Below, piece after piece: positions 1,830 to 4,425 of a stretch of 64,000 nucleotides of DNA (positions within the stretch are counted from its first letter, which is position 1; each line of letters begins with the position of its first letter). A model generated the notes under the pieces. The model was given only the letters and a program-made list of their open reading frames with translations. It did no database searches and was not told where the DNA came from. Source of the DNA: an uncultured Acidobacteriota bacterium. GTDB lineage: Bacteria > Acidobacteriota > Terriglobia > Acidiferrales > UBA7541. The position numbers and the translations under genes were made by a program. Where the stretch lies: positions 270,196-334,195 of the forward strand of contig CAWJSH010000009.1 in NCBI GenBank assembly GCA_963845465.1. The letters run 5' to 3'.

Positions 1830-2411
1830 TTATTTCGGGGCGAGTTCGTCGCGGCCCACACCGAGAGCATCGGCGACTCGGTTGATGTAGTTGAACCACG
1901 AGGCAATCAGCGTGATTTGCAAAATGCCGCGGTCATCGAATCCGACGGCTCGCAACGCCTCATGATCTTTCGGCGAACATTTCGTCGCGTCTTTGGTCAG
2001 CTTCACGACGTAGTCGAGCATCACGCGTTCCTGCTCGGTGATAGGAGCGGTGCGGTAATCCTCACGCAGCGCCGCAATCAGTCCATCATCCAACGTCACC
2101 CTACGCAGAAACTCTGCGTGTGATTCGATTCAATAGTGGCACTTGTTTGTGACCGACACCATCGTGGCGATCATCTCGTGCTGACGGCGTTGCAGCGGCA
2201 AATCGGGCGCCATCATCGCGCCGAACGCGCTGAAGGAATGAAACATCGCGTCAGGAATCAGCGAGTGTGAAGCCGTAATGCTCTCTTTCGGCCCGCGATC
2301 GACGGCCGGCACCGGCGTGGAGTATTCCGGCGGATAAAAAGCGCGTTGATCCATCATCGCTTTCTTCACGCGGTCGTCTTCGTCCATGCCGATCGTTTTG
2401 ATCCAGGTCAT
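1830..2411 (-). CDS. AhpD/carboxymuconolactone decarboxylase-like peroxidase-related protein, probable selenoprotein (TGA at 2130-2132 read as Sec)
   Basis: ORFs 2130-2462 and 1830-2099 are in the same frame, joined as ...[21 protein letters not shown].... ATG at 2411 has GGAGG upstream. AhpD-like motifs [12 protein letters not shown] and [13 protein letters not shown] are present. A hairpin follows the TGA. Confidence 0.85.
2096..2123 (-). promoter_or_regulatory. Putative bacterial SECIS element
   Basis: The minus strand after the TGA reads ATCGAA TCAC ACGCAGA GTT TCTGCGT AGG GTGA: a 7-bp perfect upper stem, a G-leading loop about 17 nt after UGA, and a TCAC/GTGA lower stem. Confidence 0.75.
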
Positions 2412-2608
2412 TGCGCCTCCGCGTGTAGCCCAGACACTCGTGTCTGGCTTTTCTCTTCGCACTTCGTAGCGATTTCAATTCTGCCATCAGCCGCCGCGCC
2501 GAAAAAGTCTGCGTAAAATATCAGCGGCCGGATGGGTGTGCATCCGGCCGCAAGTTGTTTGGGGTGCTTCCGGGGGTGTCGTTCCTGGAAGCAATGTCAG
2601 TTGAACCC

Positions 2609-2666: not shown

Positions 2667-4425
2667 TTATCGATCCTCTTTAAGTCCTTTATCCTCTGTG
2701 CATTGCAGGCGCTTTCCAGCTTCGACCGATTTGAACTCCTGCGTCTGCCCGCTCGGCCAATTCACGACGACGCGATCGACTTTGTCTCTTTTGCCGACGC
2801 CGAAGGTCAGCGGCAGCTCCGATTGCGACAAATAGCTCGAGCCGCCGCGCACGACGCGCGATTGCGTGACGCCTTCAGTCGTGACGTGTACGGTCGCGCC
2901 GACCGCGTCGCGATTCGATTTCGTTCCGATCAAGCGCAGACGCAGGCTGCGATTTCCGTTTGTGAGGTCGTTGCGATACAGATACGCGGGGCCGTGATTC
3001 GTCGTCAGCAGAAGATCGGCGTCGCCGTCGTTGTCGAAATCTCCGTAGGCGAGGCCACGCCCTACTTTTGGCATGTCAAAACCGCCGCCGACTTCGCTCG
3101 CGACGTCGTGAAATTTTCCGTTGCCGCTGTTGAGAAATAATTGCGGCGCCTGCGCGTAGCCGACGTTGCCGCGAATGTTGCGCACGGTTTCGTCGATGTG
3201 GCCGTTGGCGACGACCAGATCGAGCAGGCCGTCGAGATCGGCATCAACGAAGGTGCATCCGAAGCCGAGCGAATTGCGCGATGGGATGCCGACACCCGAT
3301 GCGGTTGCGATGTCGTCGTAAACGCCCGTCCGCGACGCACGGTAAAGGCCGATCATCTCGTTGTCGAAATTTGTGATCGCGATTCCGGCGCGGCCGGAAT
3401 TTTCGAAGTCGCCGACATCGACGCCCATACCGGCGCGCGCCTTGCCGTCGGCGCTGAAGGCGAGGCCGGCTTCCACCGCGACATCCTTGAATTTTCCGTT
3501 GCCGAGATTGCGATAGAGCTTATTTGGCTGCGTGTCGTTCGCGACGAGCAGATCGGGCCAGCCGTCGTTGTCGAAATCAAGCATGGCCACGCCGAGCGAT
3601 TTCGAGCTGCTGTCGAAAATTCCGCTGCTCGCGGTGACGTCTTCGAAGGTGCCGTCGCCTTTGTTATGAAAGAGCCAGCTTGTGTCGCCGCGATACGCTT
3701 CGGGCGTGCAATAGGATTTGTGCGTCGCGTCGAGGCTGCAGAAAACGTCGTGCTCGGGCGACCAGCGCACGTAGTTGCAGACGAAAAGATCGAGCAGGCC
3801 GTCGCGATCGTAGTCGAACCAGATCGCGGACGTGCTGAAGGCCGAGCGGCCGGCGAGCCCAGCGGCTTTTGTGACATCGACGAACGTGCCTTTGCCGGTG
3901 TTGCGGAAGAGGCGATTCTGGCCGACGCAAGTGATCAGCAGATCGGGGAAGCCGTCGTTGTTGTAGTCGCCGACGGCGACGCCCATGCCGTACATTTCGA
4001 TGTCGAGTCCGGCGCTCTTCGTCACGTCGGTGAATGTGCCGTTGCGATTGTTGTGATAGAGGCGCAGCGTGGTGCGCTGTTGCTTGTGGCCCGGCCAGTC
4101 CATCGCGTTGACGAGCAGGATGTCTTGCCAGCCGTCGGCGTCGTAATCGAGAAAAGCGCAGCCTGAGCCGAGCGTTTCGGGAAGGAGTTTGCCGCCGTAG
4201 GCGCCGCTGTTGTGTTGGAAATGAATGCCGGCTTGCGCGGTGACATCGACGAGCTGAAACCCCGGCCCGCTTTGGAGTGCGGCGCTCCCGCGCCGCTTTT
4301 CACCAGCGAGCCCAACTTCAAACGCATCCGCCGAATCATGCCGAGCTCGGCCGCCGGATCAGACTCCCTGCGAAGTCCAAGCAGCCGGTACCGGCCGCTC
4401 CGCTTAAAAAATCCCGCCGCTTCAC
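2667..4425 (-). CDS. CRTAC1-family / ASPIC-UnbV protein 1 (FG-GAP-like repeats), Tat-like signal, one frameshift near 4360
   Basis: Repeated DYDxDGxxD motifs and C-terminal GGSSYLSQSELPLTFGVG. GTG at 4425 starts MKRRDFLSGAAG in a neighbouring frame and overlaps the response regulator stop (GTGA). Confidence 0.85.
4274..4300. repeat. REP-like family A (GGAGTGCGGCGC-N4-GCGCCGCTTT); other copies at 6471-6498, 15659-15685 (reverse), 32039-32065, 37667-37693
   Basis: Five near-identical 27-bp palindromic copies read directly. Confidence 0.9.

Follow-up and report, generated by a model that had tools for sequence, protein, structure and literature searches.

The window, a stretch of 64,000 nucleotides of contig CAWJSH010000009.1 from an uncultured Acidobacteriota bacterium (assembly GCA_963845465.1), contains an AhpD-like gene on its minus strand. 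The upstream neighbor is an FG-GAP/UnbV_ASPIC gene, and the downstream neighbor encodes an Amidohydro_3 protein (Table 1). The initial annotation, which named no strand, had described the AhpD-like gene as two ORF halves lying in one frame and separated only by a TGA at 2130-2132, and had proposed that read-through of this codon gives a product of 193 aa. Both statements were confirmed by translation. The gene caller reported a 110-aa ORF, which begins at an upstream GTG, and an 89-aa ORF, and these share a common frame on the minus strand. When 2411..1830 was translated with TGA as U, a single product of 193 residues was obtained, and its sole internal stop was U94. The residues around this position read SVTNK-C91-H-Y-U94-I-E-S-H98-AEFLRR. 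The MTWIKT N-terminus is common to all orthologues, and the sequence 5' of MTWIKT is not conserved. The exact read-through protein was absent from a collection of 15 billion proteins, as expected since gene callers split such genes.

Table 1. Features of the AhpD-like locus in the window; coordinates on the minus strand run from 5' to 3' where the higher number comes first.
Feature	Coordinates	Strand	Evidence
FG-GAP/UnbV_ASPIC gene (upstream neighbor)	2667-4103	-
Terminator-like hairpin, 11 bp (9 GC) with T-rich tail, ending the FG-GAP/UnbV_ASPIC gene	2551..2524	-	sequence
Caller ORF, 110 aa, from upstream GTG	2130..2462	-
Shine-Dalgarno-like GGAGG, 4 nt upstream of ATG 2411	2420..2416	-	read from sequence
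Predicted complete AhpD-like selenoprotein CDS, 193 residues and stop	1830..2411	-	translation, TIGR01926, CMD, dN/dS, AlphaFold
Start codon ATG	2411..2409	-	MTWIKT N-terminus conserved in orthologues
UGA predicted to be read as Sec (U94), second position of C91-x-x-U94, followed by H98	2132..2130	-	translation, TGA column conservation, Cys alignment
Putative SECIS core hairpin ACGCAGA-GUU-UCUGCGU, 17 nt	2119..2103	-	covariation, frozen codons, Cys-form contrast
5' arm ACGCAGA	2119..2113	-
Loop GUU	2112..2110	-
3' arm UCUGCGU	2109..2103	-
Caller ORF, 89 aa	1830..2099	-
Terminal stop TAA	1832..1830	-	translation

Since the terminator-like hairpin ends the upstream gene, the selenoprotein gene is suggested to have its own transcription start in 2412-2523, although a simple scan did not find a sigma-70-like promoter. 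The selenoprotein gene appears to be monocistronic. The palindrome at 2524-2551 has T-rich tails on both strands, making it a bidirectional terminator-like site. ASPIC/UnbV (CRTAC1-like) paralogues were found within 1.5 kb in 86 of the 109 related loci (L018-L147), and the upstream ASPIC/UnbV gene was therefore considered as a conserved operon partner. Comparison of the orientations revealed that the paralogue usually lies 3' of the selenoprotein gene on the same strand and in some loci 5' of it, and these varying sides do not support a fixed operon. As ASPIC/UnbV genes are, in addition, very numerous in these genomes, we claim no operon.

A six-frame search of 60 related genomes detected 31 close orthologues (66-95% identity), which are present in most of the same-genus genomes, and every one of these 31 matches contained an in-frame TGA. 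Most of the homologues with 35-43% identity, which belong to other families of the order and class, likewise contained an in-frame TGA. In the same-genus loci that were fetched, which have 68-95% identity, the TGA occupied the identical column within C-x-Y-TGA-IESH (30/30), and paralogues with 35-43% identity also had it at this column. A scan with one genome per species yielded 80 further loci of 69-94% identity, all 80 of which had TGA at the U94 column. The two orthologue sets together comprise at least 94 distinct gene sequences from other Acidobacteriota genomes. Over all orthologue pairs, the Nei-Gojobori method gave a median dN/dS of 0.14 before the UGA (codons 2-93) and of 0.09 after it (codons 104-188). 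Purifying selection thus acts on both halves, which indicates that the stretch after the UGA is translated in frame and is under selection at least as strong as that before the UGA. It could be argued that the gene is a pseudogene inactivated by a nonsense mutation, as this assembly does hold broken genes, for example an fdhA-like gene on contig C6 that extends over several frames. However, a decaying gene would keep neither the TGA column, which is identical throughout this set of distinct orthologous genes, nor dN/dS values near 0.1 both before and after the codon. The comparative data thus effectively refute a pseudogene, and we regard its probability as negligible. It is also scarcely credible that a sequencing or assembly error made the TGA out of TGC, TGT, or TGG. 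It is true that the closest relatives were assembled in long-read MAG projects, which are not free of errors, but long-read errors are mainly indels rather than substitutions, and independent assemblies, made in several projects and with several technologies, share the identical codon.

Among the 120 best proteins retrieved from a database of 5.8 billion clusters, the U94 column contained Cys in 43 proteins and was printed as W in 75. One of the W proteins (P0003) was traced to a 2.6-kb contig, and the contig reproduced this protein only when TGA was translated as W, which indicates that the W in P0003 is a TGA read under code 4. The remaining W forms have the same flanking block, and they are most likely TGA codons read under code 4 as well. 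Thus, the column is occupied by Cys or TGA in homologues, as had been predicted, and the codon aligns with the second Cys of the CxxC motif, in agreement with the earlier proposal that the TGA is at the exact catalytic position.

The W given by public gene callers for 75 of the 120 homologues might be taken to mean that the UGA is decoded as Trp or Cys, either by near-cognate read-through or under an alternative code, with the hairpin merely stimulating the read-through. However, these calls come mostly from short metagenome contigs, as exemplified by P0003, and the homologues with a genuine sense codon at the U94 column have Cys, never Trp. The decoding capacity of the genome also argues against it. 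Profile searches of its own 5.73-Mb assembly detected selA on contig C7 (464 bits) and both selB (366 bits) and selD (349 bits) on contig C4, and a canonical tRNA-Sec of 99 nt with the anticodon UCA, a 6-bp D stem, and a long variable arm was found on contig C6. All four were above the curated cut-offs, and the machinery on which the Sec proposal of the initial annotation depended (selA, selB, selC, and selD) is thus complete in the genome. The tRNA-Sec is the sole tRNA with a UCA anticodon. When stop codons were counted in stop-to-stop ORFs of at least 400 codons (n=2142), TGA ended 939 of them and was the commonest ordinary stop, which indicates that TGA is not a reassigned codon. Decoding of the UGA as Trp or Cys is therefore very unlikely.

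The same assembly contains an fdhA-like formate dehydrogenase alpha gene at C6:879196-882189 on the minus strand, which has the canonical Sec site NQARI-TGA-HSSTVPGLG. A GUGCCC-GGUCU-GGGCAC hairpin lies downstream of its TGA (C6:881741..881739). In the assembly, the gene is divided among three or more frames, which may be due to indel errors or to real frameshifts.

A perfect 7-bp hairpin with a G-leading loop had been noted about 17 nt after the TGA of the AhpD-like gene. The hairpin is real; its arms form seven perfect pairs, and G is the first nucleotide of the loop. The stem begins at the 11th nt after the UGA, leaving a spacer of 10 nt, and the loop G is the 18th nt, so that the reported distance fits the loop but is wrong for the start of the stem. 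As in the AhpD-like selenoprotein family, the stem-loop is directly downstream of the UGA and has a G in a small apical loop. It shares these properties and its location in the coding region with the E. coli fdhF-type SECIS, but its sequence is different, it lacks an evident bulged U, and its loop has 3 nt, or 5 nt once the closing A-U pair is open. Its size of 17 nt and its distance of about 11 nt from the UGA match the minimal functional element reportedly defined in work on the E. coli minimal SECIS. A lower stem of the SECIS, formed by columns 13-18 and 37-42 of the alignment described below, was also considered; it pairs well in the sister-family genes and is mostly unpaired in this genus, and is therefore not counted in the element here. 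An Rfam scan of 1700-2600 with E <= 10 matched no family, SECIS families included, and gave chance matches only (snoRNA, miRNA, Xoo8).

The fold energy of the hairpin compared with shuffled sequence was no better than chance (z = -0.27), and its significance must therefore be drawn entirely from comparative data. For this comparison, 54 distinct sequences were aligned without gaps, with the UGA as the anchor (A1). The six inner pairs of the hairpin were formed in 54/54 sequences. The C-G pair at columns 23-33 was replaced by G-C in 13 sequences, and the A-U pair at columns 24-32 by G-U in 10. The covariation score of the hairpin was 0.131 versus 0.068 in column shuffles, none of 500 of which reached 0.131, and it was above the scores of all slid registers. 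Since the compensatory cells separate two paralogue types, most of them represent one or a few ancestral events. The compensated hairpin, ACGGGGA-GGA-UCUCCGU, is found in the paralogue type with HGEDLR instead of HAEFLRR; the Leu codon of this type is changed from CTG to CTC, which is synonymous and keeps the pair.

The codons that overlap the hairpin show a corresponding constraint. Codons 98-102 (CAC GCA GAG TTT CTG) had zero synonymous diversity in the same-genus genes (32/32) and are the only frozen run of degenerate codons in the gene, whereas flanking codons such as Ser97 use all four synonymous codons. In the 80 extra genomes, three rare core variants were observed, comprising A>G and C>T, in which G-U pairing is kept, and one change of the loop-closing pair. 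When Cys-form genes encoding the same SHAEFLRR peptide were compared as a control (n=3 genes only), CAT, GCC/GCG, and TTC were found at the hairpin codons, and two of the three genes lose the hairpin, while the Cys-form gene L149 still folds a similar one. The comparison of Sec and Cys forms thus makes visible the constraint that a compact 17-nt SECIS imposes on the overlapping peptide. These comparisons support the view that the hairpin is conserved as an RNA structure.

The conservation downstream of the UGA also bears on whether the UGA simply terminates translation. In that case the gene would give an N-terminal fragment of 93 residues, and perhaps also a separate C-terminal fragment started at GTG 2099, and standard ORF calling yields exactly these two pieces. 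Termination would, however, cut the C-x-x-[U]-x-x-x-H motif and its helix in half, and the Cys-form homologues are single full-length proteins. Moreover, nucleotide conservation within the gene is highest in the 30 nt from the UGA to GTG 2099, and these stay in frame, while GTG 2099 itself is the codon of V105, a column that is not conserved (Val in 26/32, encoded by GTG, GTC, GTT, or GTA). It is thus extremely unlikely that the UGA acts as a terminator.

The AhpD-family identity given by the initial annotation was upheld by both sequence and structure comparisons. The protein scored 104 bits against the NCBIfam family TIGR01926 'peroxidase-related enzyme' over residues 53-186 (cut-off 81.8) and 32.8 bits against the Pfam CMD domain (cut-off 23). 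A sequence search of the PDB found 2pfx, 3c1l, 2oyo, 2prr, and 6k40, and U94 aligned with the second Cys of C-x-Y-C-x-x-x-H in 2pfx, 3c1l, and 2oyo. The AlphaFold model, for which 49 homologues were used, was all-helical (pLDDT 87.4, pTM 0.84) and placed C91 just before helix 92-106. The best PDB matches of this model in Foldseek were 6k40, 2oyo, and 2prr (TM 0.78-0.82), and the matches to the AhpD fold also included non-peroxidase enzymes such as the debrominase Bmp8. The protein thus resembles DR1765 (6k40) and the structural-genomics entries 2oyo, 2prr, 2pfx, and 3c1l ('uncharacterized peroxidase-related protein') in its fold, its length of about 190 aa, and the C-x-Y-C-x-x-x-H block. It differs from them in having a Cys-Sec pair where they have Cys-Cys, and the identity is about 25-34%. 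An invariant Glu, E79, is located 12 residues before C91. Six other CMD-domain paralogues are encoded in the same genome, and they contain no TGA.

Several narrower assignments were considered and rejected. The protein shares with M. tuberculosis AhpD (1knc/1gu9) the CMD/AhpD helical core, the CxxC(U)xxxH motif, and a Glu 12 residues before the first Cys, and we take E79, C91, U94, and H98 to correspond to E118, C130, C133, and H137 of the M. tuberculosis enzyme. However, the score against AhpD sensu stricto (TIGR00777) was far below the cut-off (19.3 versus 191.95 bits), 1knc/1gu9 were matched in Foldseek with a TM of only ~0.5 (E ~0.05), and ahpC is not a neighbor here. NCBI models two AhpD-superfamily families as (seleno)proteins with C-x-x-U, namely NF041238 (AhpD_rel_CFYUT) and NF053654 (YciW-related (seleno)protein), but the scores were far under the cut-offs in both cases (59.5 versus 175 bits and 34.1 versus 310 bits). 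The motif is CHYUI in the present protein, and NF041238 proteins are about twice as long, the present protein having about half the length of that 357-position profile. Carboxymuconolactone decarboxylase (PcaC) was represented by generic CMD domain matches only, and there were no pca genes among the neighbors; the CxxU redox motif points to an oxidoreductase and not to a decarboxylase.

With these results, it is very probable that 2411..1830 on the minus strand is one functional AhpD-like (COG2128/TIGR01926) selenoprotein gene, whose UGA would be decoded as Sec via the hairpin. From the reading frame, the conserved UGA, the structured RNA, the machinery, the family, and the fold, we infer that Sec is inserted at this codon. 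In the proposed mechanism, SelB with Sec-tRNA(Sec) would bind the 17-nt hairpin when the ribosome is at the UGA, so that codon 94 would be read as Sec and translation would not terminate there. The product would be an all-helical thiol/selenol oxidoreductase of the AhpD fold with a Cys-Sec pair, in which the active site C91-x-x-U94 is placed at a helix N-terminus with the conserved H98 and E79 nearby. By analogy with the AhpD family, the selenolate of U94 would replace the second Cys as the attacking nucleophile. Family knowledge further suggests that C91 may resolve the intermediate as a selenenylsulfide and that H98 and E79 may assist proton transfer.

The initial annotation had called the product a Sec peroxidase-like protein. 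The Sec part of this description is supported by the conserved UGA, the hairpin, and the machinery, while the peroxidase part follows from family membership. Loss of the AhpD-like DR1765 (PDB 6k40) sensitizes Deinococcus radiodurans to H2O2 (PMC8945050), and on the basis of this mutant phenotype our best guess is that the present protein likely has a role in peroxide or oxidative-stress defense. No peroxiredoxin partner and no ahpC were found as adjoining genes. Alternatively, the Acidiferrales-like Sec enzyme might be a selenol-dependent reductase that acts on another substrate instead of a peroxiredoxin or peroxide partner, which we consider unlikely. Such a reductase could, for example, catalyze reductive dehalogenation as in Bmp8 or have a role tied to the FG-GAP/UnbV_ASPIC genes. 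If it existed, the obligate Sec form and the nucleotide-invariant mini-SECIS would reflect a lineage-specific chemistry.

Whichever substrate is used, the probable selenoprotein belongs to a family that is already catalogued. The Sargasso Sea study introduced the 'AhpD-like protein' (COG2128, CxxU) as a selenoprotein family, which has been catalogued since 2005 (PMC1088965). In the GOS data, AhpD-like ('AhpD-like 1') was one of the most abundant families and comprised 299 Sec and 902 Cys sequences (PMC2398784). A 2026 review lists 'AhpD-like protein, TIGR01926, CxxU' (PMC13188914), and the AhpD-like selenoprotein is a browsable family in BSepDB. That AhpD-like selenoproteins are a recognized class, as the initial annotation had said, is borne out by these three papers. 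Since its family, motif, and mechanism have all been catalogued, the locus is a further member of the AhpD-like selenoprotein family, and the present result is an annotation fix and not a discovery. The likeness includes a TIGR01926 score above the cut-off, a CxxU motif with Sec in place of the second Cys, a hairpin directly 3' of the UGA with a G in a small apical loop, and widespread Cys homologues. In contrast to the family as known mainly from marine metagenomes, the present gene is from soil-type Acidobacteriota (Terriglobia, Acidiferrales). It also differs in that this lineage seems to have fixed the Sec form, with a nucleotide-invariant 17-nt SECIS core. The locus points to Acidiferrum/Acidiferrales-type soil Acidobacteriota with an active Sec-decoding trait.

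For annotation, the consequence is that standard callers either split the gene or, on short metagenome contigs, change to code 4, so that the catalytic residue appears as Trp. The expectation that standard callers would miss the protein therefore held for the split ORFs of the window as well as for the database homologues with W. The W printed at this residue seems to be a systematic error in the annotation of the AhpD-like selenoprotein.

Tyr codon 93 (2135..2133, minus strand), which is directly 5' of the UGA, was TAT in 32/32 orthologues and never TAC. This preference may be a context constraint on Sec decoding.

Seven of the orthologous loci, with 73-80% identity (L070, which is the same as L020 of genome G020, L072, L076, L081, L095, L115, and L117), have record titles that name unrelated phyla. 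The unrelated groups in these titles include Dormiibacterota, Saccharimonadales, Verrucomicrobiia, and Planctomycetota. The sequence of L070 is identical to that of a genome placed in the window's own genus. The submitter taxon labels of these seven loci look unreliable.

In six genomes of 1.6-3.2 Mb from a sister family in the same order (G040, G048, G039, G044, G046, and G042), two AhpD-like paralogues are adjacent and oppositely oriented (L048, L049, L050, L053, L054, and L057). Both genes of these pairs have TGA at the CxxU column. Within each pair, one gene is of the HAEFLRR type and the other is of the HGEDLR type with the compensated stem, forming a putative two-selenoprotein gene pair.
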